DNA of 13,233 bases from an uncultured bacterium (GCA_963844965.1 CAWJQC010000005.1:1-13233); one strand, 5' to 3'. Positions 2-12,976 are shown, counted from the stretch's first letter. Program-made: numbers and translations. Notes: a model not told the origin generated them from the sequence alone.

Positions 2-1261
2 ACGAAAGAGGAATTGGAAAAATACTTGAAGCTTGTTGAAGAAGCGCAAAAACGCGACCACAGAAAACTGGGTAAACGTCTTGACTTGTTTACTTTTTCA
101 GATATGGTCGGCAGCGGTCTCCCGCTTTGGACACCGAGAGGAGCTCTGGTCCGGGGATTGTTGAATGAATATGTAGAATCGCTACAAGCAAAAGCCGGAT
201 ATACCCAAGTTTGGACGCCGCAGATCGCGAAAGCGGAACTTTTCAAAACATCCGGCCACTACGATAAATACCGGGAAAGCATGTTCCGCGTAAAATCAAA
301 TTACTCCGACGAGGAATTCTTTCTGAAACCCATGAATTGCCCCCAGCACACGCAGTTCTATGCAAGCCAGCCGCGGAGCTACCGCGACTTGCCGCTGCGT
401 TATACCGACTTCGCGATGCTCTACCGCGACGAAAAACCCGGCGAACTGAATGGCCTCGCGCGCGTCAGATCGTTCTCCCAGGATGACTGCCATATTTTCT
501 GCCGCGAAGACCAGGTTGACGAGGAAATTGACGTAGCGCTCGCCATGATAAAGGAAATTATAGGAACTTTCGGCCTCAAGTATCGCTATCGCCTTTCAAC
601 AAGCGACAAGGCGCATCGGGAAAAATATATAGGCGATCCGAAAACGTGGGACAAGCTGGAAAAGTGGGCGGAGGAAATTATGAAACGCAACGGCATTGAA
701 TACTTTGACGGCCCCGGCGAGGCGGCCTTCTACGGACCGAAAATGGACCTCATGGCAACGGATGCTCTTAGCAGGGAGTGGCAGCTCTCAACCGTGCAAA
801 TTGACTTTTTCCTGCCGGAGAGGTTCGGGTTATCGTACATTGACAAGGGAGGAAAAGAAAAACGGCCAGTTATGATCCACCGCGCGATATTGGGCTCGCC
901 CGAACGTTTCATCATGGTGCTTCTGGAGCACTTGGCCGGCGCGCTCCCGCTTTGGCTCGCGCCCACTCAGGCGGAGATCATAAACGTCGGTTCAGACCAA
1001 AGAAAATATGCGGCTAGTATCCACAAACAACTCTCCGACGCCGGCCTGCGCGCGAACCTGAGCGACGAAAATCTTACCGTCGGCAAACGCATCCGCGAAG
1101 CGGAACTTATGAAAATTCCTTACATCCTCGTCGTCGGCGAAAAAGAAGAAAAAAACGGGACGGTTAACGTCCGTCATTATCGCCGCGGGCAGGAGGGAGA
1201 AGTTAAAAGCGAAAAGCTGATTGAAAAGATCAAAAAAGAAATAGAGGATAAGGTCATATAA
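2..1261 (+). CDS. thrS: Threonyl-tRNA synthetase, 5'-truncated by the window edge (catalytic class II core plus anticodon-binding domain)
   Basis: The open frame runs from position 2 with no start codon in the window. The translation contains RDHRKLGKRLDLF, class-II motifs (FRVRSFSQDD.HIF, GPKMD) and a C-terminal anticodon-binding domain (ILVVGEKEE..GTVNVR). TAA stop at 1259-1261. The TTG at 14 in the ORF track is internal, not the true start. Confidence 0.9.
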   Translation, partial: TKEELEKYLKLVEEAQKRDHRKLGKRLDLFTFSDMVGSGLPLWTPRGALVRGLLNEYVESLQAKAGYTQVWTPQIAKAELFKTSGHYDKYRESMFRVKSNYSDEEFFLKPMNCPQHTQFYASQPRSYRDLPLRYTDFAMLYRDEKPGELNGLARVRSFSQDDCHIFCREDQVDEEIDVALAMIKEIIGTFGLKYRYRLSTSDKAHREKYIGDPKTWDKLEKWAEEIMKRNGIEYFDGPGEAAFYGPKMDLMATDALSREWQLSTVQIDFFLPERFGLSYIDKGGKEKRPVMIHRAILGSPERFIMVLLEHLAGALPLWLAPTQAEIINVGSDQRKYAASIHKQLSDAGLRANLSDENLTVGKRIREAELMKIPYILVVGEKEEKNGTVNVRHYRRGQEGEVKSEKLIEKIKKEIEDKVI

Positions 1262-1269
1262 ATTGATTT

Positions 1270-1295
1270 GGGCTCCCCGCGAAAGCAGGGAGCCC
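1270..1295. terminator. GC hairpin immediately after the thrS stop (GGGCTCCC-10 nt loop-GGGAGCCC)
   Basis: Perfect 8-bp inverted repeat at 1270-1277 and 1288-1295, starting 9 nt after the thrS TAA. The following T-tract is weak (ttgaatt), so this may be a weak or bidirectional terminator. Confidence 0.45.
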
Positions 1296-1302
1296 TTGAA
1301 TT

Positions 1303-1354
1303 GGGAGGGGTCGGCGACCGAGCTTAAAGCCCTTCCGCCGACCGCAGACCTCCC
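1303..1354. repeat. Long composite GC-rich stem-loop (GGGAGG-GGTCGGCG ... CGCCGACC-gcaga-CCTCCC)
   Basis: A 6-bp plus 8-bp nested inverted repeat seen directly in the sequence. It lies between the thrS stop and the stop of the minus-strand small gene and forms a second structured element in the convergent junction. Confidence 0.4.
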
Positions 1355-1367
1355 ACTTGATACACAA

Positions 1368-1751
1368 TCACTTAGGCGGCAGAAGTTCTGCCACCGGCCG
1401 GGATAAGGGCTGACCGGCGGAGTTGGTCATCCTTGCAAACCAAAGCCCCCTCTTCCCGTTCCAGCGAAACCCGTCAATGACCGCCCTACCGGACCCGTGC
1501 CGACCCTTGCGGTAGCGGACCGTTGTCCCCTTCCGGATGACGAACTGCTTGTCATCGCTAGGAGGTGGTTCATCGAAATGCGGGCCAGACACTGAATCTC
1601 CGTTTCCGTTTTCTTCCTCCGCAGAGGGGACGGCGAAAATCTCACGCGGGCTCATCCCCACTGACCGACCAAACCGGAGCCAGATGCAAATGAATCCAGC
1701 CAGGATCACAAGGAACGCGATTAAAAAAAACATGGGTGGTACGTTTGGCAT
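1368..1751 (-). CDS. Small membrane-anchored protein, 127 aa (N-terminal TM helix, acidic linker, basic Gly/Arg-rich C-terminus), function unknown
   Basis: ATG at 1751 is preceded by GGAGGT (1763..1758) with a 6-nt spacer. A consensus promoter lies upstream. The N-terminus MPNVPPMFFLIAFLVILAGFICIWL is a hydrophobic helix. TGA stop at 1368-1370 is followed on the minus strand by hairpins. I recognise no homolog. Confidence 0.6.
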   Translation of the reverse strand: MPNVPPMFFLIAFLVILAGFICIWLRFGRSVGMSPREIFAVPSAEEENGNGDSVSGPHFDEPPPSDDKQFVIRKGTTVRYRKGRHGSGRAVIDGFRWNGKRGLWFARMTNSAGQPLSRPVAELLPPK

Positions 1752-1800
1752 GCTCACACCTCCAGAATGGATTTCTCAATAATGCCAGACAACTGTCTCC

Positions 1801-1829
1801 ATTATATACTAACTAAAATAAAATGTCAA
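1801..1829 (-). promoter_or_regulatory. Perfect consensus sigma70 promoter TTGACA-N17-TATAAT on the minus strand, driving the 127-aa gene
   Basis: Minus-strand read: gggcTTGACAttttattttagttagtaTATAATgg. The -35 is at 1829..1824 and the -10 at 1806..1801, with a predicted TSS near 1793 and a 5'UTR of about 40 nt to the SD/ATG. Confidence 0.65.
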
Positions 1830-2014
1830 GCCCACATCCCCTGCCCAAAATAGTGGTCATAGTAGGCCCGACGGCAAGCGGCAAGAGTCGCTCCGACCAT
1901 TTTCTCGGAACCGCGGTCCTTCGGCTCCTGCGGCCAAAGTCCGCTGCTTCTCGGCGTCAAAACTTTTGCCCCGCAAAAGGCCAAACTTTTGACGCCTGCG
2001 AAAGCTTCCTCTAA
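1823..2014 (+). pseudogene. Relic of a MiaA N-terminus (P-loop PKIVVIVGPTASGKSR) without the rest of the enzyme; probably a decayed paralog fragment or leader ORF
   Basis: The first ~20 residues match the MiaA signature GPTASGKS and the true miaA N-terminus (PKIVAIIGPTASGKSK). Many codons differ at synonymous positions. Downstream of the P-loop the translation is unrelated to MiaA. It overlaps the -35 of the divergent promoter. Confidence 0.3.
1953..1996. promoter_or_regulatory. 10-bp-armed palindrome GGCGTCAAAA-N24-TTTTGACGCC with a nested 7-bp hairpin (CTTTTGC-ccc-GCAAAAG); the right arm carries the miaA -35
   Basis: Perfect inverted arms at 1953-1962 and 1987-1996, with an inner hairpin at 1963-1979. 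The direct repeat CAAA(A)CTTTTG occurs twice. Candidate operator or attenuator. Confidence 0.4.
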
Positions 2015-2017
2015 AAT
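1989..2017 (+). promoter_or_regulatory. miaA promoter TTGACG-N17-TAAAAT giving a nearly leaderless mRNA
   Basis: The -35 TTGACG is at 1989-1994 and the -10 TAAAAT at 2012-2017. The predicted TSS near 2024-2025 is only ~7 nt before the ATG at 2032. No SD is present. Confidence 0.5.
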
Positions 2018-2031
2018 AGTCCTCACTTGGA

Positions 2032-3027
2032 ATGATTAAAGCAATACGACCAAAGATCGTTGCAATTATAGGTCCAACTGCATCCGGCAAGAGCAAGCTA
2101 GCCATTAAGCTTGCACACAAATTCGGCGGTGAAATCGTCTCCGCCGATTCGCGCCAGATTTACCGCGGGATGGATATCGGGACTGCCAAGTTACCACTTG
2201 GCAAAATTCCCAATTTCCCCGCCTGCGCCGAGGCTTCGGCGGGCAGGCAATTTCCAATTTCCAAAATTCACCTTATTGACATCAAAAATCCCGACGAAAA
2301 TTATACCGCCGCCGATTACAAAAAGGATGCAATCGCCGCGATACGAAAAATTTTACGCAAGGGCAAACTCCCAATACTCGTAGGCGGCACGGGACTTTAC
2401 GTTAAAGCGGTCACGGATAATTTGGACATTCCCGCGGTCGTGGCCGACGAAAAACTCCGCCGTCGGTTGGAGTCGGAAGCGAAGAAACGCGGCTTGGACT
2501 TCTTGTTCAAAAAACTGGTCAAGCTTGATCCAGAAGCAGCTTATATCGTTGACCCCAAAAATCCGCGGCGCGTGATAAGAGCACTGGAGGTCACCATAAA
2601 AACCGGCAAGCCGTTTTCCGCACAACGAAGAAGGGGCGAGCCGCTTTTCGATTCGTTCATAATCGGCATTAAAACGCCGGGAGGTATGCTCAGTAAAAAA
2701 ATCAACGCGCGTGTGGACGAAATGATCAAAAACGATCTCGTGGGTGAAGCAGAAAATTTGCTGGAAAGATACGGACCAAGTCACAAAGCATTTGATTCCA
2801 TCGGCTACCGCGAGGTTATCCACTATCTGAACGGCGAGCTCGTGCTTGATGAGGCCGTGGAACTAATAAAGAAGAACACCAAAAACTACGCCAAGCGGCA
2901 AATGACGTGGTTCAGAAAAGACAAAAATATCCATTGGGTCGGCGGTGAAAAGGCGGCGTTCGAACTTACGAAAAAATTTCTGATTGGTCAGGGCAGCTGT
3001 AGCTTTTCGCGGAATAGGGTAAAATAA
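2032..3027 (+). CDS. miaA: tRNA dimethylallyltransferase (isopentenyl-tRNA transferase)
   Basis: P-loop IVAIIGPTASGKS, then ADSRQIYRGMDIGTAKLP, HLIDI and LVGGTGLYVKA. TAA stop at 3025-3027. It carries an extra ~13-residue insert between GTAK and HLIDI. Confidence 0.9.
   Translation: MIKAIRPKIVAIIGPTASGKSKLAIKLAHKFGGEIVSADSRQIYRGMDIGTAKLPLGKIPNFPACAEASAGRQFPISKIHLIDIKNPDENYTAADYKKDAIAAIRKILRKGKLPILVGGTGLYVKAVTDNLDIPAVVADEKLRRRLESEAKKRGLDFLFKKLVKLDPEAAYIVDPKNPRRVIRALEVTIKTGKPFSAQRRRGEPLFDSFIIGIKTPGGMLSKKINARVDEMIKNDLVGEAENLLERYGPSHKAFDSIGYREVIHYLNGELVLDEAVELIKKNTKNYAKRQMTWFRKDKNIHWVGGEKAAFELTKKFLIGQGSCSFSRNRVK
2203..2269 (+). repeat. In-frame mini-insert inside miaA: a GC hairpin (2221-2248) flanked by AAAATTCC/CAATTTCC direct repeats
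   Basis: GCCTGC-GCCGA-ggct-TCGGC-gg-GCAGGC forms a stem-loop. CAATTTCC-type repeats lie on both sides. It encodes LPLGKIPNFPACAEASAGRQFPISKIH, which is absent from typical MiaA between GTAKP and HxLIDI. Confidence 0.4.
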
Positions 3028-3031
3028 ATAC

Positions 3032-4064
3032 ATGGCCTCTGGTCGTTTTGAAATCCAATTCTTCGCGGGACTCCTGCTTTTGTCCGCCGCGCTCATGATT
3101 TTTGTTTTTTATCCATGTCTGAACGCGCTTGTCATCGCCATCGCGCTCGCCGTCATTTTCCATCCCATCTATGCGAGACTGCTACGTCTCATGCCGAAAT
3201 GGGAATGGCTTGCCGCCCTGATTACGGTCATGCTAACCATCGCAGTTATTCTCGTTCCGCTCACGATTTTCGGATTCAAAATCTTCGCGGAAGCACAGGC
3301 TCTTTACACGAGCTTTGCCTCGGGCGACAAAGGACCGCTCCTGGAATTTCTCCACGGCAAACTCGCGGAACTTACGCCCGGACTCAATCTAGACCTGACT
3401 CAATACACCCAGCAAATTCTTTCCGCACTGCTTGGAAACCTGGGATTCGATCTTCTCCAGGATCGTCGGCGTCTTCGGTACTTTCCTGCTGGCGCTTTTC
3501 GCTCTGTATTATCTCCTGAAAGACGGCTTGAAACTGAGAAGGGCAATGGTAAAGATCAGCCCGCTTTCGCCTGAGAATTCAGCCGAAATCGTAAATCGCC
3601 TTCAGACGATGACCGGTTCCGTAATTACGGGAACCGTCGCCATGGCTGTCATACACGGAATTCTCGTCGGCCTTGGATTTCTCTTGTTTGGACTTACAAA
3701 CCCGGTACTCTGGGGATTGGTTGCCGTCGTAGCGGCATTTATACCGATAATTGGAACAGCGCTGGTCGTCATCCCCGGAATATTCTGGCTTGTGCTCACA
3801 CAAAATCTCGCCGGAGCGATCGGTCTCGCGCTTTGGGGAATCCTTATGCTCGGGCTCATAGACAACATCCTCAGGCCGCGTTTAATCGAGCGCCGCTCAA
3901 AAGTCCACCCTCTTCTCGTTCTTCTTTCCGTCATCGGCGGCCTCGCGCTTTTCGGCCCGACCGGATTCCTTCTTGGGCCTCTCGTCTTGAGCTTGTTCCT
4001 TGTGCTTCTTGAAATCTATCCGGCGCTCATACTGAAACGCGGCGACAAAACACGGTCCGTCTAG
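3032..4064 (+). CDS. AI-2E family transporter / PerM-like (UPF0118) permease, with an apparent +1 frameshift near 3446
   Basis: Two overlapping ORFs (3032..3574 frame 2; 3432..4064 frame 0) together give a typical ~340-aa multi-TM AI-2E protein. Frame 1 ends its homology at ..LLGNLG. Frame 2 continues SIFSRIVGVFGTFLLALFALYYLLKDG, the family-conserved segment. Skipping one nucleotide after gga (3443-3445) joins them. TAG stop at 4062-4064. Tightly coupled to miaA (4 nt). Confidence 0.75.
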
Positions 4065-4234
4065 GCAAGTCCATCTTCCCAGACCTAAACAGGCGCCAAG
4101 CGAGCGGAAAACAACAAAAAATGCGTATGGTAAAATAGTAATAGACCCCCCACACCAAACGAGAAGTTTCCCGAATACCGAACGCCGCTTCTCGTTTGAT
4201 ATGAGGGTAAAGGTCGTGAAAAAAATATTTATAT

Positions 4235-4507
4235 ATGGCCAAACAAGTCATTAAGCGCGGGGGGAAACGCGAGCCATTCCGGGCCGAGAAGCTGAGGAAG
4301 TCTGTTCGCGCCGCCTGCAGGGACACCCACATGTCGCCGGTCTGCATAAAAAAGGTAGTAACAAAAGTTGCCGGCCCGGTTCTGCGGTTTGCCGCGAAGC
4401 GGAAGGTGGTCAGGGTAGCGGTGCTCCGGAAAAAAGTTCTCGCCGGACTACGCAAGACGGAACCGGCAGCGGCAAAGGCCTGGCTGCGTTACGAGAGACG
4501 GCACTAA
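4235..4507 (+). CDS. Stand-alone ATP-cone domain protein (90 aa)
   Basis: VIKRGGKREPFRAEKLRKSVRAAC ... AKAWLRYERRH matches the ATP-cone consensus VIKRDGR.EPFD..KI ... Y..YRE.R, the NrdR/RNR N-terminal regulatory domain. No catalytic domain is attached and no SD is present. Confidence 0.75.
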   Translation: MAKQVIKRGGKREPFRAEKLRKSVRAACRDTHMSPVCIKKVVTKVAGPVLRFAAKRKVVRVAVLRKKVLAGLRKTEPAAAKAWLRYERRH

Positions 4508-4557
4508 GCCCAAAAGTGGGGGCAGGTAGTTTCTCTGTGGGTTTGTTTTTCATATTT

Positions 4558-4597
4558 AAAAACAGCGGCTTAGATGAGCCGCTGTTTTGTTCTTTTT
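4558..4597. terminator. Bidirectional rho-independent terminator between the ATP-cone gene (+) and the M29 peptidase gene (-)
   Basis: AAAACAGCGGC-ttagatga-GCCGCTGTTTT is an 11-bp stem. A T-run (ttgttcttttt) follows on the plus strand. The A-run upstream (tttaaaaa) gives a U-tract for the minus-strand transcript. Confidence 0.7.
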
Positions 4598-4652
4598 CGG
4601 TGTTTCCGATGCAGGAGCAACCGATGCTTCAGTGAAGTGAAAAATTGTGCTC

Positions 4653-5870
4653 CTAAACCGTGAACTTACCGTCTTTGTAAATCACTTTCGCGCGGCCGCC
4701 TTTAAGATATGCCGTTATGGTTCTCGGAGCGGTGGAAATCAAATCCTCGTGGATGGCGGAATCATTGAAACCGAGCTTTGCCCAGCCGGATTTTCCGACT
4801 TTCGTCGGATTGCCGCTGTAACAGTTGTGGAACGAGGCTCCGACGGCGATGTGGGTGTTGCCGTTCGGGCCGCCGATATTTTCGTCATAAAGCGTCTCGG
4901 CCATGAACTTCGTTATCCTTGAAAATCTTTTATCCGTAAGCGAAAATTCGCCGACCTTATTCCCGCCGGGCACGCCGATCATCTGCTTCAGCAGTTTTTG
5001 ATTCCGCTTCGCTTTCGCTTCAACGACGACGCCTTTCCTGAATTTTAGCTCAATGCCGGTCATGAGATGGCCGTGCGTATATACTGGCTGATTGAATTTT
5101 ATCCATCCCTCGGTGCCGCGCCAATCCGGGGAAGTATATATCTCAAAGCTCGGCATATTCCGTCCGCCGCCGCCCTGCCAAAGCCGTCTCTCGCCAAGCG
5201 TAAGCCAAAGGTCCGCGTCCAAGCTGTTCACATAGAGTTTTTCAATATTCATACTGTTCAATCGCCGCCTGATAGCGCTGATCTGCCGTTCAACGCTCCG
5301 CCACTTGGCTATCGGATTTGAAGCATCCAAAAAGCACGCCTCTTCTATTTGACGCCAATACTCCGCTTCGCTCAATCCGGCTTCTTTCGCCATCGCCGGC
5401 GTCCCATAGAGAGCTATCGTCCAGGTGAACTTGCCGAGATTTTCTTTTTCGTCACGCCAGTCCCTGAATGGCTTCATGGACCGGCTCCTCGCGACAATTT
5501 TCTTGGGGTCCACGCCTTTCAGCGCTTCCATATCCGTATCACTCGCAATAAAAATGTAGTGGTCAATCTGGTCAATCAAGCCGCGGAAATAACTGCTCGG
5601 GAAGAAATTTATTTGGCGCTCCTTGGCGTTCACGTAAAAGTCGCGACTGATGTTGAATTCGTGGTCGTTGTTCGGCTGATAACTGGAAATGGTGTGCCCG
5701 CCGACCCTCGTGATAGCCCTCAGAAGTTCAGCGTAGAGAGGTTTGGCGTATTCATAAGCAACGATATAGACAACTTCTCCCCTTCTCACGCCCCGGCCGC
5801 CGCCGAGCGCGAAATTGACAAGGACGTCAGCATACTTGCTTATAATTTTCCGGCTGGGTTTATAGGACAT
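4653..5870 (-). CDS. Aminopeptidase, MEROPS family M29 (AmpS/PepS/aminopeptidase T-like)
   Basis: 405 aa. N-terminal KYADVLVNFALG..GEVVYI and C-terminal ETLYDENIGGPNGNTHIAVGASF fit the M29 thermophilic metalloprotease pattern. TAG stop at 4653-4655. Confidence 0.75.
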   Translation of the reverse strand: MSYKPSRKIISKYADVLVNFALGGGRGVRRGEVVYIVAYEYAKPLYAELLRAITRVGGHTISSYQPNNDHEFNISRDFYVNAKERQINFFPSSYFRGLIDQIDHYIFIASDTDMEALKGVDPKKIVARSRSMKPFRDWRDEKENLGKFTWTIALYGTPAMAKEAGLSEAEYWRQIEEACFLDASNPIAKWRSVERQISAIRRRLNSMNIEKLYVNSLDADLWLTLGERRLWQGGGGRNMPSFEIYTSPDWRGTEGWIKFNQPVYTHGHLMTGIELKFRKGVVVEAKAKRNQKLLKQMIGVPGGNKVGEFSLTDKRFSRITKFMAETLYDENIGGPNGNTHIAVGASFHNCYSGNPTKVGKSGWAKLGFNDSAIHEDLISTAPRTITAYLKGGRAKVIYKDGKFTV

Positions 5871-5944
5871 GGGACTTGCCGTTAATTACCGAACGAAGCC
5901 GCTCATTAGCCGCCACCAAAATTACTTTCCAGAAGTTTCCTCGT

Positions 5945-6352
5945 TTACTTCAACAGCTCGGTTGTTTTCCCATCAAAATGCTCTCCTTCGTCGGCCTCGG
6001 CTTCTGCTTTCGTCTTGTGAATAACGGCGTCCTTGTGGTTCGGCGGGGAATAGACCGTGTAGAGCTTCATCGGCTCGGCCTTGGAGGTGTTTATTATGTT
6101 GTGCAACGCGCCGGCGGGAACGACGACGGCGAAGCCGTCGCTAATCGCGTGCTCAACACCGTCCAAAACCGCTTTCCCCTCGCCCGCCTCAACACGGATG
6201 AACTGGTCCAGGTGGTGGACTTCGGCGCCGATTTCCTCACCGGGCTTCAGGCTCATCACCACAAGTTGGCTATTTTTCGCCGTGTACAAAACCTGGCGGA
6301 AATACCCATTATCCAAAGACGCTTTTTCTATGTTTATTACGTATCCTTTCAT
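5945..6352 (-). CDS. Small cupin-domain protein (cupin_2-like), 135 aa
   Basis: Single cupin barrel with GEEIGAEVHHLDQFIRVEAGEG and VVVPAGALHNIINTS. TAA stop at 5945-5947. Confidence 0.65.
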   Translation of the reverse strand: MKGYVINIEKASLDNGYFRQVLYTAKNSQLVVMSLKPGEEIGAEVHHLDQFIRVEAGEGKAVLDGVEHAISDGFAVVVPAGALHNIINTSKAEPMKLYTVYSPPNHKDAVIHKTKAEAEADEGEHFDGKTTELLK

Positions 6353-6418
6353 TGTTTTAAAAAATTTGTAATTGTCGACCTTGCTATAATTTTATCATTT
6401 TCTTAAAAATCTCGCGAA

Positions 6419-9580: not shown

Positions 9581-10424
9581 CTAAACACGCGCTTCAAGAT
9601 TCAGCGCTAATTCGCCAGAATCGACGCGTTCAAGCAGCCGCACGATTGTCGCATACAGTTCGTGCGTTGAGCCGCACCGCCATTCCCAAAGTATTTCGCG
9701 CTCTCCGCGCATTCCTACCGGATACGGATAAGTGGAAGATTCCACGATTATGGGTCGAAAAGTCTGGCAAGAATTTTTGAAGCTGGCCGATGGGTTTCTG
9801 AACACCTTCCGGCACCCACTCCGGCGGCTTGACACCGAACCTGCGCAAATACATTTTCAGCTTGGATGATTTTTCATCGGTGTCCACGTCTCTCGGCGTG
9901 CCGTATCCTTCGAAATACACGACTGCATAGCGCTCCGCGTCAAGCAAGACGATATTGCCGGCAGTCAATGAATCCTTAAGCGGCAATGCCTCATTCACAA
10001 GCGTATGATATTCTTCGTTATATCGCCTGCAAAAGTCCGCAATAAAGTTCCAGTCGTCTTGGTCATAAACAACGGGGAGTTTCGGTGTTTCCTCAAGAAT
10101 ATTCTCCTCCCGATAATTACGCAAAGAAACTCTGCTGTATTTCTTCCAGAAGCTCCTCAGTTCCTCAAGCTTCAATCCACCACGCGGCCAAGATTGAAAA
10201 GCTGGACAGTTGAATCCTGCGTCAACGAGCTGCTGAATCCGGATATTCTTCAGAGGTAAAAGTTGTATCTTCGGGACGACTATGTTTCTTTTACGAAACA
10301 GATTTCCAATAAGATGCCCGAGCGGCGAAGGCCCATCGGCAGCTTTTGTGATATTTATAATGCCGAGCTTCTTCAATATGCGAGCGATTGCTTCGCGCTG
10401 GCTTCCAGTTCGCTTCATATACAC
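9581..10424 (-). CDS. Uncharacterised ~280-aa protein; the C-terminus probably continues in the +1 frame, ending at 9581 rather than 9630
   Basis: Start at ATG 10424 with GGGGGA 6 nt upstream. No family recognised by eye. The ORF-track frame ends in an Arg/Ala-rich tail (GRNARRARNTLGMAVRLNARTVCDNRAAA) that looks like out-of-frame translation. The alternative frame (..GMRGEREILWEWRCGSTHELYATIVRLLERVDSGELALNLEARV) uses ordinary codons and stops 8 nt before the terminator hairpin. The frame switch would be near 9720-9740. Confidence 0.5.
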
Positions 10425-10453
10425 CGTCCCCCTTATAAATCAACGCTGCCCCT

Positions 10454-10481
10454 ATTTTACAAAATTTTTTGAAAACGTCAA
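10454..10481 (-). promoter_or_regulatory. Candidate promoter TTGACG-N16-TAAAAT (minus strand) for the 9581..10424 gene
   Basis: Minus-strand read: caTTGACGttttcaaaaaattttgTAAAATaggggg. -35 at 10481..10476 and -10 at 10459..10454, about 30 nt upstream of the SD/ATG. Confidence 0.5.
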
Positions 10482-10506
10482 TGGTTGCAGATAGCTCGTT
10501 TCGGCC

Positions 10507-10535
10507 TTGACACTGCTTACTGTTCTCCGTTAATC
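10507..10535 (+). promoter_or_regulatory. Possible divergent promoter TTGACA-N17-TTAATC for the 10661..12454 operon
   Basis: Consensus -35 at 10507-10512 and a weak -10 at 10530-10535, leaving a ~120-nt leader containing a small palindrome CCGCA-tcg-TGCGG (10556-10568). Confidence 0.3.
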
Positions 10536-10660
10536 TTCCGATAGGAGCATGTGTCCGTTTCCGCATCGTGCGGATTCAGCGACTGGCTCGTTTTACAACT
10601 TAGCCGAACCAGAAGTGTCCATTGATGACTGCTGGCGGTTTCCTGCAAAGGGAGAACGCC

Positions 10661-10978
10661 ATGCAAACGGCCAATATCACGCTTGAACGCGTCCTGCCGA
10701 TTGAGCAAGCTTTTGCGGCGGCACGAGAAGCAGTCCTTGAAAAAGCCGACGGTGAGAATATTTTTTTCTACAAAGACAAAACATTGCAGCTTCAAGATCT
10801 TTATCCGAGAGAACTGAATTCCGCCGCACTTTACCTCTTGGAAGAAAATGTGGCTTTTCAGCGCGAACTGCGGAAATATCTTCTGGAGCGGTATGGAATT
10901 GACACGCTGCGACTATCCGCGGTCGTGCACCTCGGAAACCGAAAAGGGTATCATCGGAATGATTCCCCCTTACGTTGA
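10661..10978 (+). CDS. Hypothetical protein (105 aa); possibly the N-terminal part of a single protein continuing into the ParB/Srx-like ORF
   Basis: ATG 10661 is preceded by AGGGAG with a 6-nt spacer. The upstream TTG/ATG at 10622/10625 lack an SD. No recognisable domain. It ends in a TGA immediately after a C5 run (10965-10969). Confidence 0.5.
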   Translation: MQTANITLERVLPIEQAFAAAREAVLEKADGENIFFYKDKTLQLQDLYPRELNSAALYLLEENVAFQRELRKYLLERYGIDTLRLSAVVHLGNRKGYHRNDSPLR

Positions 10979-11318
10979 AATTTCGGAGGAGTTGGTGAGG
11001 ATCATACCGCTTGACGGAGATCGCGAACCTCCTCCGTCGCAAATACTTAACGTGCCGATTTTGATCGACGGATTGCACCGCGCGGCTCTTGCGGATGAAG
11101 AAAAGATTCCGCTTCGCTGCATCGTCTGTAGCGGAAACTTTGACCGCCGATACCTCTATACCTCTTACGCCGCGCATGGGTCCGAAATAAAGTTATACAA
11201 GAAAGTTCCACCAGTGAAAAAACGTTATAGGCGACAGAAAGAATATTCCTTCATGCGACCACTTGAGGTTTTCCGATTAACAAACGTCGGAGTTGGCGGC
11301 GAGTATGACAGGAAGTAA
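10959..11318 (+). CDS. ParB/Sulfiredoxin-fold (ParB N-terminal-like) domain protein, ~119 aa
   Basis: VEISEELVRIIPLDGDREPP parallels the ParB N-terminal box (I..I.pNP.QPR). ILIDGLHRAALADEEKIPLRCIV parallels the GxxR/GCHR motif region of ParB/Srx (iaGeRRwrAa..g...iP.iV). It overlaps the preceding ORF by 20 nt in the +1 frame. Its stop (11316-11318) sits inside the SD of the next gene. Confidence 0.5.
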   Translation: MIPPYVEISEELVRIIPLDGDREPPPSQILNVPILIDGLHRAALADEEKIPLRCIVCSGNFDRRYLYTSYAAHGSEIKLYKKVPPVKKRYRRQKEYSFMRPLEVFRLTNVGVGGEYDRK

Positions 11319-11329
11319 GGAGTGATTAC

Positions 11330-12454
11330 GTGCCAAAGAAAACGCTTGTGATTATCACCGGTCCTTCTCGCGTCGGTAAAACAACGATCATCGATAAACT
11401 TCTTGAGATTGTGCCATCTTCAGCGCGATTCGTAACAACGACTACGCGGCCACCACGACCCAAAGAACGGGACGGTGTGGACTATTATTTTCGGAGCCGT
11501 GAGGAATTCAAAGCTGGCATAGAGAGCGGCGAGTTTATCGAGTGGGTGGAATCATACGGGCATTTCTATGGAACTTCCAGAATTGAACTTTCGAGACTGA
11601 TGGACAGCAATTCTGTACTGTTTGCCGCTACTGACACTCGCGGAGTCGTCGGCCTCAAGCAGGAATTTCCTCAAGCCGTCACCGTCTTCGTTAGGCCGGG
11701 CTCAATGGAAGAACTGGAAAAACGGATTGCAAACAGTACCGAGTTAACACCCGACTCTATTCAAAAAAGAATGGCTGCGATTACAGATAAAATGCGGCGT
11801 GCCGGCGATTTTGACTACTTAGTTACGAACGCCGAAGGAAAACTCGGCGACGCAGTACAAGCGATATTCAGTATACTCAAAAACCATACCACCTGGCGCA
11901 TCGGCTTTGACCTCGACGGCGTGGTCATAGACCATACCGCGAATAAGATATCTGTTGCCGAAAGATTGGGGATCCGACTCGCTCCGCGAGAGACACCGTC
12001 GAATATCATGAAGATGAAAGTCGACCCGCAGATCTACAGAAAGATCAAAAAAACGATATATGGTGACCTCTCCGTAGAACTGCTAGCCCCGATAATGCTC
12101 GGAGCGGAAAATGTTCTGGCCAAGCTTAAAACGGCAAAATTTCCGCTCTTCCTTATCTCCATAAGACCGACCACCGAAGAACCGATAGCGTGGCTTAAGA
12201 ACCGCGGTTTATGGGAAAAATATTTCGACAGCCAAAATGCATTTTTTGTAAAGGAACGGGTCGAAAAGGATGAAATTGCGCGCAAACTCATGCTGGATAT
12301 TTTTCTTGATGATGAACCGAGTACGCTACGTACAATGCCTTCGGTACCGAAAAAATTTCTTTTCGATCCTTATGGCGTTTACCCGGAAAACCTAGAGTCT
12401 TACGCTGTGGTGTCTGGCTGGAAAGAGTTCGCTGATGTGATTTTGTCTCTATAA
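11330..12454 (+). CDS. Fusion protein: N-terminal guanylate kinase domain plus C-terminal HAD-superfamily NT5C-type 5'(3')-deoxyribonucleotidase-like domain
   Basis: GTG start with SD TAAGGAG 7 nt upstream. Gmk hallmarks: GPSRVGKTT, TTTRPPRPKERDGVDYYF, FIEWVESYGHFYGTSR, FDYLVTNAEGKLGDAV. The C-terminal half shows IGFDLDGVVIDH (HAD motif I), FLDDEP and VVSGWKEF, which parallel NT5C-family nucleotidases (D.DGVL, LIDDnP, vsGW.d). TAA stop. Confidence 0.8.
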   Translation: MPKKTLVIITGPSRVGKTTIIDKLLEIVPSSARFVTTTTRPPRPKERDGVDYYFRSREEFKAGIESGEFIEWVESYGHFYGTSRIELSRLMDSNSVLFAATDTRGVVGLKQEFPQAVTVFVRPGSMEELEKRIANSTELTPDSIQKRMAAITDKMRRAGDFDYLVTNAEGKLGDAVQAIFSILKNHTTWRIGFDLDGVVIDHTANKISVAERLGIRLAPRETPSNIMKMKVDPQIYRKIKKTIYGDLSVELLAPIMLGAENVLAKLKTAKFPLFLISIRPTTEEPIAWLKNRGLWEKYFDSQNAFFVKERVEKDEIARKLMLDIFLDDEPSTLRTMPSVPKKFLFDPYGVYPENLESYAVVSGWKEFADVILSL

Positions 12455-12462
12455 AAATTGAG

Positions 12463-12500
12463 AATAAAAAATGCCCCCTTCAAGATGGGGCATTTATTTT
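12463..12500. terminator. Bidirectional rho-independent terminator (AATAAAAA-ATGCCCC-9 nt-GGGGCAT-TTATTTT) between convergent genes
   Basis: 7-bp GC stem at 12471-12477 and 12487-12493, flanked by an A-run upstream and a T-run downstream. It lies 9 nt after the fusion-gene stop and 14 nt after the minus-strand DNPH1-like stop. Confidence 0.65.
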
Positions 12501-12514
12501 CCCAAAATTCTTTT

Positions 12515-12976
12515 CTACGCCAATCTCTTTAGCAATTCCTCGGGCGTGGAAACGACTTCATGGATAAGTTTGTGGCTGGAGGGCTCTTCGTACAAATCGT
12601 TGGGATAACTTCCCATCAGCGTTTTCGGATGCAGGGCATAGCACATTTTTCCGGCCATGGCCGCGGCGAAAAGTTCACCGTTCGTGTTCGCACCAAGATA
12701 GCCGTCCTTGTTGAAAATAAAACAAACGTCGGCGACGCGCACTTTGCGGAAAAGATGGTCGTACACTTTTCCCGCGACAGTTTCGCGGTAATTCGCGTCA
12801 GCGGCGAGCCGGTCCTTCTCGTGAAGCTGTTCAAATCCCATCGGCCGCTCTTCAAAATTCGGCTCCAATATGACGGGATGCAATCCTTTTTCCGCGGCAA
12901 GTTTGCGCAGCTCGGCTATGAATTCGGCCAAATCTTTTTTAAAACGGACACTCGTGCAAAAAACGACGGATTTCAT
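12515..12976 (-). CDS. DNPH1/Rcl-like 2'-deoxynucleoside 5'-phosphate N-hydrolase / nucleoside 2-deoxyribosyltransferase-fold protein (153 aa)
   Basis: The N-terminus KSVVFCTSVRF parallels DNPH1 (YFCGSIRGG). The core ADVCFIFNKDGYLGANTNGELFAAAMAGKMCYAL matches the NDT/DNPH1 motif (sDavvA.ld....GTafElGyA.A.gKPv). TAG stop at 12515-12517. Confidence 0.7.
   Translation of the reverse strand: MKSVVFCTSVRFKKDLAEFIAELRKLAAEKGLHPVILEPNFEERPMGFEQLHEKDRLAADANYRETVAGKVYDHLFRKVRVADVCFIFNKDGYLGANTNGELFAAAMAGKMCYALHPKTLMGSYPNDLYEEPSSHKLIHEVVSTPEELLKRLA

Follow-up and report, generated by a model that had tools for sequence, protein, structure and literature searches.

A stand-alone ParB-CE protein recurs beside an HAD phosphatase, a nucleoside monophosphate kinase and an uncharacterized partner in Patescibacteria, with a possible role in free-nucleotide handling

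The contig CAWJQC010000005.1 of an uncultured bacterium, 13,233 bp long and analysed here over its whole length (hereafter the window), carries a gene for a stand-alone protein of the ParB-CE family, followed by a fusion of a guanylate kinase (Gmk) to an HAD-superfamily phosphatase and preceded, in divergent orientation, by a gene for an uncharacterized protein of about 280 residues. The closest relatives of the window's proteins come from metagenome-assembled genomes of Patescibacteria/Parcubacteria. ParB-CE, an HAD phosphatase, a nucleoside monophosphate (NMP) kinase of either the Gmk or the Tmk type and the 280-residue protein constitute a module that recurs in other loci (Table 1). Because ParB-CE recurs beside these partners, a role in the handling of free nucleotides is proposed: the module may be a Patescibacterial accessory unit of metabolic character, acting on the pool of free (deoxy)nucleotides and built around ParB-CE (probability about 0.5).

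ParB-CE loci from other assemblies were searched with the window's proteins by tblastn. The full ParB-CE alignment contains no stretch conserved enough for a locus search; a narrower alignment yielded two loci in GTDB species genomes and four in JGI metagenomes. An orthologous HAD phosphatase adjoins ParB-CE in six loci (the window, L001, L002, L003, L007 and L010), the five orthologues outside the window being 34-52% identical to the window's domain, and an NMP kinase does so in seven, as Gmk in the window, L001, L003 and L007 and as a Tmk-family enzyme in L010, L020 and L018. The 280-residue protein is an immediate neighbour in four loci, the window included. A more distant HAD domain, unmatched to that of the window by tblastn, is fused to ParB-CE in protein P0182 of L020. 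Gene order and orientation within the module are shuffled from locus to locus, which argues for selection on proximity, or functional coupling, rather than for an inherited frozen synteny. On a rough estimate that assumes about five NMP-kinase genes in a genome of about 1,000 genes, the probability of finding such a kinase adjacent by chance would be a few per cent at each locus. The first-pass annotation of the window had grouped the ParB-like gene and the fusion with a convergent gene for a 153-residue protein; a nucleotide-themed linkage around the ParB-like gene does exist, but not the trio as drawn, the 153-residue gene being absent from the other ParB-CE loci examined and the 280-residue partner having been missed.

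Several of these loci have peculiarities. In L010 the ParB-CE gene lies inside an operon for dTMP synthesis, together with an unusual 322-residue fusion that has dCMP-deaminase, DCD and dUTPase matches. L020 shows a tandem duplication of the ParB-CE domain within one module, once stand-alone and once in a 439-residue ParB-CE-HAD fusion. The 2.2 kb contig L015 (CAYGED010000260.1) pairs DprA with a ParB-CE of the Patescibacterial type, 47% identical to that of the window, and was binned as 'uncultured Coxiellaceae bacterium', a label that is probably a binning error.

The window's ParB-CE gene is interrupted by a 1-nt (+1) frameshift in an A4G3 run (AAAAGGG). Its halves had been read as a 105-residue unknown that overlaps a ParB/sulfiredoxin (Srx) protein by 20 nt. 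Two separate genes can be rejected in favour of one, because the Pfam score rises when the halves are joined and because the homologues are single proteins. Against the ParB-CE profile (PF24392; gathering cut-off 23 bits), the first open reading frame (ORF) alone scores 20.9 bits, the second gives nothing and the joined protein of 218 residues scores 30.9 bits. Single homologous proteins cover 92-100% of the repaired length, and the repaired protein aligns end to end, through the join, with 20 of 20 full-length homologues (204-252 residues), PF24392 being present in all full-length homologues. At the join the window sequence runs from GNRKG directly into IIGMIPPYVEISEE, vs GIIAMIPPYVEVSEE in the closest homologue.

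The predicted structure of the repaired protein (predicted local distance difference test score 88.6, predicted template-modelling score 0.85) has the alpha/beta fold of the ParB/sulfiredoxin superfamily. Foldseek placed human sulfiredoxin, the N-domain of pNOB8 ParB, Atu1540 and SerK at the top of its ranking, with E values near 0.05 and probabilities of at most 0.97, and its closest relatives among solved structures are enzymes of the fold, namely sulfiredoxin and two free serine kinases, SerK and SbnI, rather than DNA clamps. These scores are modest, yet the consistency of the matches supports the ParB/Srx fold that had been called from the sequence. A sequence link to sulfiredoxin was tried and rejected: a profile search of the Protein Data Bank (PDB) with ParB-CE came back empty, giving no sequence-level link to solved structures, and hhalign against human sulfiredoxin gave a probability of 0.7%, so that the link holds at the level of the fold only. 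All 21 sequences compared share the motif D136-G137-x-H139-R140, whose conservation among 110 members of the wider family is 98-100%. It is taken here to be the phosphate-binding motif of Srx and ParB, an equation that comes from the fold and from general knowledge of the superfamily and not from a residue-level superposition. Invariant in the Patescibacterial clade, besides this motif, are P102-P-x-V-E106 and a basic C-terminal tail.

It is highly improbable that this ParB-like protein works on DNA, whether in partition, as a clamp or as a DNA-modification accessory of the DndB/DpdB type. The protein differs from a canonical ParB, the CTPase clamp of partition systems, in having only 218 residues and, in the Pfam search, no helix-turn-helix, ParBc or dimerization domain, and in structure it comes closest to the fold's small-molecule enzymes. 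None of the ParB-CE loci fetched has a ParA, TGT, Dnd or methylase partner. Nothing points to the modified-base or DNA-modification role suggested at first, no transglycosylase, methylase, Dnd or Dpd partner having been found.

The Patescibacterial clade is small, with 22 clusters in 5.8 billion proteins and, in a pattern scan, two of 185,579 species representatives; its members are 33-67% identical. A full HMMER scan of 1.84 billion representatives returned 563 relatives, including 44 with E below 1e-30. Of the top 150, about 17 exceed 400 residues, and among ten unusually long relatives scanned for domains (296-519 residues) five combine HD with ParB-CE (one with a C-terminal HD), three ParB-CE with NUDIX and one ParB-CE with HAD, while one has no second domain. 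The suffix CE stands for conflict effector (PMC12871103). A literature search for the ParB-CE family found nothing relevant. The term reportedly goes back to Nicastro, Burroughs, Iyer and Aravind (NAR 2023), who reportedly predicted that certain ParB versions degrade nucleotides in immune systems.

Downstream, the stop codon of the ParB-like ORF (TAA, 11316-11318) lies within the AAGGAG Shine-Dalgarno box of the Gmk-HAD gene, as noted in the first reading of the sequence; the box precedes the GTG start (11330) by 7 nt, and the plus-strand genes are packed close. The product is a fusion of 374 residues, 188 of Gmk followed by 186 of HAD. The Gmk domain scores 120.5 bits against PF00625 (cut-off 25.2, E = 8.7e-35) and 161.1 bits against TIGR03263, vs an equivalog cut-off of 160.45, and it has the P-loop GPSRVGKT, the GMP-binding TTTRPPR and YGT, and DTRG, as expected of a guanylate kinase. 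The HAD half retains motifs I-IV (DLDGV, S89, K125 and LDD) and belongs to the HAD phosphatases. Six of six sequences share the two Asp residues of motif I, the Ser and the Lys, and LDD is present in all five with an intact C-terminal half. Its best PDB profile match is 2obb, the BT0820 phosphatase, and the match to the BT0820-type HAD family has E = 1.8e-05. The fusion had been annotated as Gmk-NT5C; both superfamily assignments stand, but the NT5C label does not, at 15.9 bits against a PF06941 gathering cut-off of 24.8. Kinship to NT5C is plausible from sequence, however, since precomputed NT5C matches exist for the orthologues in L010 (E <= 1e-5) and, weakly, in L001. Among the loci examined the two domains are fused only in the window; the Gmk homologues adjoining ParB-CE in L001, L003 and L007 are separate genes of 188-193 codons. 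A check of the junction for an artefactual fusion found no hidden stop or start in the other frames, and the fusion is therefore taken as real and specific to the window contig.

The 280-residue protein (the 'w264 family') is likewise split in the window, into ORFs at 9630-10424 and 9581-9835, and the repaired protein of 278 residues aligns end to end with its homologues. The family has 12 homologues or clusters (277-312 residues), is as rare as the ParB-CE clade and adjoins ParB-CE in every locus where its context is visible (the window, L001, L003 and L005/L014). Pfam identified no domain in any of the 13 members, and profile searches against the PDB as well as PADLOC and PHROGs gave no match for the protein. 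It showed no relationship to ParB-CE in hhalign, or to a 259-residue ORF of L020. A likeness to the ATP-grasp domain of PPDK_N/PpsA type, tried in hhalign with a presumed E. coli PpsA N-terminal sequence as query, was not supported (probability 0.2%).

In the mechanism proposed, ParB-CE would bind a nucleoside triphosphate (NTP) at DGxHR and would either hydrolyse (deoxy)nucleoside tri- or diphosphates or transfer phosphate onto or off a free (deoxy)nucleotide. A further phosphate would be removed by the HAD enzyme, and the adjacent NMP kinase would re-phosphorylate (d)GMP or dTMP, the two setting opposite fluxes. Together they could adjust the phosphorylation level and the balance of scavenged (deoxy)nucleotide pools. 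The prevailing view is that Patescibacteria rely on nucleotide salvage. In the PUA-Cal-HAD system, an HAD phosphatase and a '-CE' effector dephosphorylate (d)NTP in a cascade of two enzymes, and the first step, from deoxynucleoside triphosphate (dNTP) to diphosphate (dNDP), belongs to the HAD phosphatase (PMC12871103).

Several points weigh against such a metabolic unit. The comparison comprises about 11 distinct loci, some of them related. A hydrolase beside a kinase would be a futile cycle unless regulated, and the rarity of the clade is odd for a housekeeping function. The family is named for a predicted 'conflict effector' role, and a search of the literature found no biochemical data for any ParB-CE protein. 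Finally, the block occupies a slot that varies between relatives, as an inserted island would.

A more specific version of the metabolic idea is possible, if doubtful: the ParB-CE clade and its private 280-residue partner may represent an unrecognized nucleotide enzyme of housekeeping type on the ParB/sulfiredoxin fold, complexed with the HAD nucleotidase and the NMP kinase. It could be, for example, an NTP-dependent phosphotransferase acting on (d)NMP or (d)NDP, or a phosphohydrolase converting dNTP to deoxynucleoside monophosphate (dNMP) and feeding dCMP deaminase and ThyA. If so, the 'conflict effector' versions would have in housekeeping ParB-CE their metabolic ancestor or counterpart, and it would supply a missing salvage step in ultra-small bacteria.

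It is unlikely that the module instead serves as an immune or toxin system that depletes nucleotides, with ParB-CE and HAD as a two-enzyme (d)NTP-degrading effector and the NMP kinase as sensor, activator or reset. The Pfam family name points that way, as do the fusions of ParB-CE to HD, NUDIX and HAD domains, the sporadic distribution of ParB-CE and the position of the block in a variable slot between the 153-residue gene and gatB. Defensive dCTP deaminases are reported (Tal et al. 2022) to carry an N-terminal nucleotide-kinase domain, which would fit a kinase in such a system. There is a precedent for an HAD co-effector (PMC12871103), and the disruption of ParB-CE and its partner in the window, with the frameshifted HAD gene of L003, is decay of a kind seen in dispensable genes. 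However, the module contains no sensor domain, and its neighbours across the ParB-CE loci are core housekeeping genes (MreBC, TopA, DprA, RRF, GatB and aminoacyl-tRNA synthetases) and not defence islands. The kinase passes the threshold for the housekeeping Gmk equivalog, ParB-CE of L010 is embedded in a thyA-tmk-folA operon, and the clade, at the identities given above, is not notably fast-evolving. No ParB-CE match was found in 50,697 phage records or in IMG/VR contigs, nor any signal of mobile, plasmid or viral origin; PADLOC, PHROGs, the phage records and the viral contigs gave nothing for ParB-CE or the 280-residue protein. In PADLOC-DB 2.0 the ParB-CE, 280-residue and 153-residue proteins have no match, and the only hits are weak ones to the Gmk P-loop (mad8, E = 2.1e-05, 22 bits) and a marginal one at the start of HAD (PDC-S08, E about 1e-3). 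ParB-CE thus lacks the setting of an effector in a conflict or immune system, having no PADLOC match, no phage or viral relative and neighbours in housekeeping and nucleotide metabolism. The defence role that had been offered as one option found no positive support beyond the family name. The statement that the combination is not a named system holds, PADLOC giving no meaningful match.

The gene for the 153-residue protein, convergent with the Gmk-HAD gene, had been assigned to a DNPH1/Rcl-like N-hydrolase. Membership of that family fails in three ways: Pfam Nuc_deoxyrib_tr (PF05014) scores 12.3 bits vs a cut-off of 28.8 (E = 0.19), a PDB search with a profile of the family, up to E = 10, retrieves no chain of DNPH1 or of a nucleoside 2-deoxyribosyltransferase (NDT), and hhalign against human DNPH1 (sequence verified against the PDB) gives a probability of 0.7%. 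A low-confidence model (predicted local distance difference test score 60) resembles nucleoside 2-deoxyribosyltransferases, with TIR and REC domains scoring almost as well; the protein probably has an NDT-like flavodoxin fold with an invariant Glu. The family comprises 345 homologues; identities run from 67 to 97% in the 120 listed, which have no Pfam domain and of which those with a name belong to Parcubacterial lineages. A tblastn search found the gene in none of the other ParB-CE loci fetched. It has conserved neighbourhoods of its own: in Liptonbacteria the order is L11, dCMP deaminase, Tmk, a 378-residue P-loop (AAA_17) protein, NUDIX, the 153-residue gene and GatB, the last two abutting, and in two other genomes a NUDIX gene lies just upstream of it, directly in one and one gene away in the other. 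Loci with this family are L021-L026 (739-5916), L011 and L012. The gene was therefore rejected as part of the ParB-CE module. A paralogue, 41% identical, lies two genes upstream in L012. As one of the more strongly conserved unannotated Parcubacterial proteins, encoded in a core nucleotide-metabolism cluster, the 153-residue protein deserves separate study.

In the window, the cupin, 280-residue, ParB-CE and Gmk-HAD genes form a block between the 153-residue gene and gatB, which are directly adjacent in relatives, and the convergent arrangement follows from this position. The slot is variable elsewhere as well, holding a 256-residue protein with a weak DUF4406 (NDT-clan) match in L011 (6518-7288, minus strand) and a 223-residue ORF in L026 (4504-5175, minus strand), where GatB was called only as a C-terminal fragment. 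The two convergent genes had been described as sharing a bidirectional terminator. A GC-rich hairpin that would resemble a terminator in both directions does separate them (-16 kcal/mol on RNA folding, z = -2.27), but a simple consensus terminator scan does not list it, because its loop has 9 nt.

It is highly improbable that the ParB/Srx protein, the Gmk-NT5C fusion and a convergent DNPH1-like glycosidase make up one module for salvaging or sanitizing modified deoxynucleotides such as 5-hydroxymethyl-dUMP. All four genes share a nucleotide theme, the convergent genes share the terminator-like hairpin, and in a non-significant hhalign alignment FCxSxR and G..E..A..GK of the 153-residue protein line up with human DNPH1. 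That same non-significant alignment, however, pairs an invariant Val (V5) of the family with the Tyr of DNPH1 'LYFCGS', which is taken to be catalytic. The DNPH1 and NDT tests fail as described, no base-modifying enzyme lies nearby, and the 153-residue gene is absent from the other ParB-CE loci while being core in relatives in a cluster of its own, with NUDIX upstream and gatB downstream.

The module in the window itself may be decaying. Three genes within 13 kb are frameshifted: ParB-CE, the 280-residue gene and an unrelated AI-2E transporter. The Logan contig L013, an independent assembly from the same population that is 99.9% identical, reads TTTTGA, with the TGA in frame, at the point where the 280-residue gene is broken (L013 1141-1199), the window having the frameshifted TTTTCGA and homologues Arg or Ser; it ends at window position 10928, 14 nt before the ParB-CE frameshift. 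Because the two assemblies disagree, the break sites appear to be either heterogeneous among strains or prone to sequencing error. The window's ParB-CE departs from the family at six of the 41 columns with at least 90% conservation, including P170A, at a near-universal Pro, and W173G (11166-11180), while its closest relatives depart at 0-2; the Trp lost at position 173 is conserved in 110 of 110 wider-family members examined. The 280-residue gene departs at eight of 78 highly conserved columns, its closest relatives at one. The 153-residue gene, used as an internal control, departs at only one of 74, and the rate of substitution error is therefore low. These sequence comparisons suggest relaxed constraint on ParB-CE and its 280-residue partner, with gmk-HAD intact; sequencing error is possible. 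The HAD gene of L003 (7205-7783; also L004 and L016) matches the window's HAD domain in two reading frames and is apparently frameshifted as well.

Such damage would also be expected if this genome held no functional module, a housekeeping gmk-HAD gene having come by chance to lie beside two pseudogenes, or if the frameshifts were assembly errors. The number of frameshifted genes, the unrelated transporter among them, the disagreement of the assemblies at the 280-residue site, the end of the Logan contig just short of the ParB-CE frameshift and the loss of conserved columns, with a Trp invariant in 110 relatives, all speak for this explanation. It is improbable, because the linkage recurs in other genomes with intact genes and the control gene indicates a low substitution error; gene death in the window would in any case have no bearing on the function of the module elsewhere.

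The rest of the window encodes a class II aminoacyl-tRNA synthetase, MiaA, the AI-2E transporter, an M29 peptidase, GatB and a bicupin. Scans for tRNA and Rfam features found none in the window, and the divergent promoter region between the 280-residue gene and ParB-CE has no notable repeats. Of the first reading of this region, the reality and tight packing of the genes stand, while the split of ParB-CE into 105- and 119-residue products, the NT5C and DNPH1 labels and the borders of the module do not.

Table 1. Gene content of ParB-CE loci and features of the window; genes on the minus strand within a locus are marked (-).
Location	Feature or gene order	Coordinates	Strand	Remark
Window	280-residue gene(-), ParB-CE, Gmk-HAD fusion			
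L001	280-residue gene(-), ParB-CE, Gmk, HAD(-)			
L003 (= L004, L016)	ParB-CE, Gmk, HAD, 280-residue gene			
L007	HAD(-), Gmk, ParB-CE			
L002	HAD(-), ParB-CE			
L005 (= L006, matching L014)	ParB-CE, 280-residue gene			
L010	dCMP deaminase, ParB-CE, NT5C/HAD, dCMP-deaminase/DCD-dUTPase fusion, Tmk, ThyA, DHFR	1235-6412		
L020	ParB-CE, ParB-CE-HAD fusion, Tmk	804-3432		Overlapping genes
L018	Tmk-family kinase, ParB-CE			Kinase divergent from strong ParB-CE (120.6 bits)
L008	ParB-CE, NYN			
L015, L017				Contigs too short to judge
Window	AI-2E family transporter	3032-4064	+	Overlapping ORFs 3032-3574 and 3432-4064, matching positions 2-131 and 135-326 of the Pfam profile
Window	ORF of 142 residues	4027-4455	-	No Pfam match
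Window	ORF of 176 residues	5876-6406	+	No Pfam match
Window	Uncharacterized protein of about 280 residues	9581-10424	-	Conserved ParB-CE partner, divergently upstream; 1-nt frameshift in run 9757-9761
Window	ParB-CE family gene (ParB/sulfiredoxin fold), 218 residues repaired	10661-11318	+	Split into 105- and 119-residue ORFs; +1 frameshift at 10942-10948
Window	Guanylate kinase domain of 374-residue fusion	11330-11893	+	PF00625, TIGR03263
Window	HAD-superfamily phosphatase domain (NT5C-like/BT0820-like)	11894-12454	+	In-frame fusion to Gmk
Window	GC-rich hairpin with A-rich and T-rich flanks	12460-12500 (approx.)		Between convergent Gmk-HAD and 153-residue genes; terminator-like in both directions
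Window	153-residue protein	12515-12976	-	Strongly conserved Parcubacterial family; neighbour, outside the ParB-CE module

So far the sole role put forward for ParB-CE, the degradation of nucleotides in immunity, derives from genomic context. The family is already known; its Patescibacterial, non-immune context appears to be new. A stable setting of this kind, with gmk or tmk, an HAD nucleotidase, the 280-residue protein and once a thymidylate-synthesis operon, offers a testable hypothesis for the action of the fold on free nucleotides. It may show how the nucleotide-depleting effectors of immunity relate to housekeeping enzymes, and the module bears on nucleotide-pool management in Patescibacteria, with their presumed reliance on salvage.

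Compared with known systems, the window's clade shares with 110 members of the wider ParB-CE family (PF24392) the near-universal pattern Y..Y..PPxxE..DGxHR..P..W..P..K. The wider family includes fusions of the domain to nucleotide phosphohydrolases of the HD, NUDIX and HAD types, whereas the Patescibacterial proteins stand alone and have an added basic C-terminal tail (KKxYRRQxxYSFMRP...YGRK); their genes lie among housekeeping genes and gmk, tmk and thyA, have the 280-residue protein as a private partner and show no sensor or defence context. The window's copy differs from the family in being frameshifted and in lacking the invariant Trp. Relative to sulfiredoxin, the catalytic Cys is missing (DGLHR vs FGGCHR), and relative to sulfiredoxin, SerK and SbnI alike there are an extra N-terminal alpha/beta region, the C-terminal tail and no detectable sequence similarity. 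The Gmk domain conforms to canonical guanylate kinases (TIGR03263), passing the equivalog cut-off with its substrate-binding motifs kept, and the HAD domain keeps motifs I-IV of the NT5C and BT0820-type phosphatases, with NT5C membership below threshold. The 153-residue neighbour is a very conserved Parcubacterial family, distinct in sequence from DNPH1/Rcl and the nucleoside 2-deoxyribosyltransferases (PF05014). The anti-phage system PUA-Calcineurin-CE-HAD (PMC12871103) is comparable in that its '-CE' nucleotide phosphoesterase works with an HAD phosphatase of its own, the two taking dNTP through dNDP to dNMP. Its catalytic fold is calcineurin-like rather than ParB, and it has a PUA sensor and forms filaments, whereas the Patescibacterial module has no sensor and is linked instead to an NMP kinase and the 280-residue protein.

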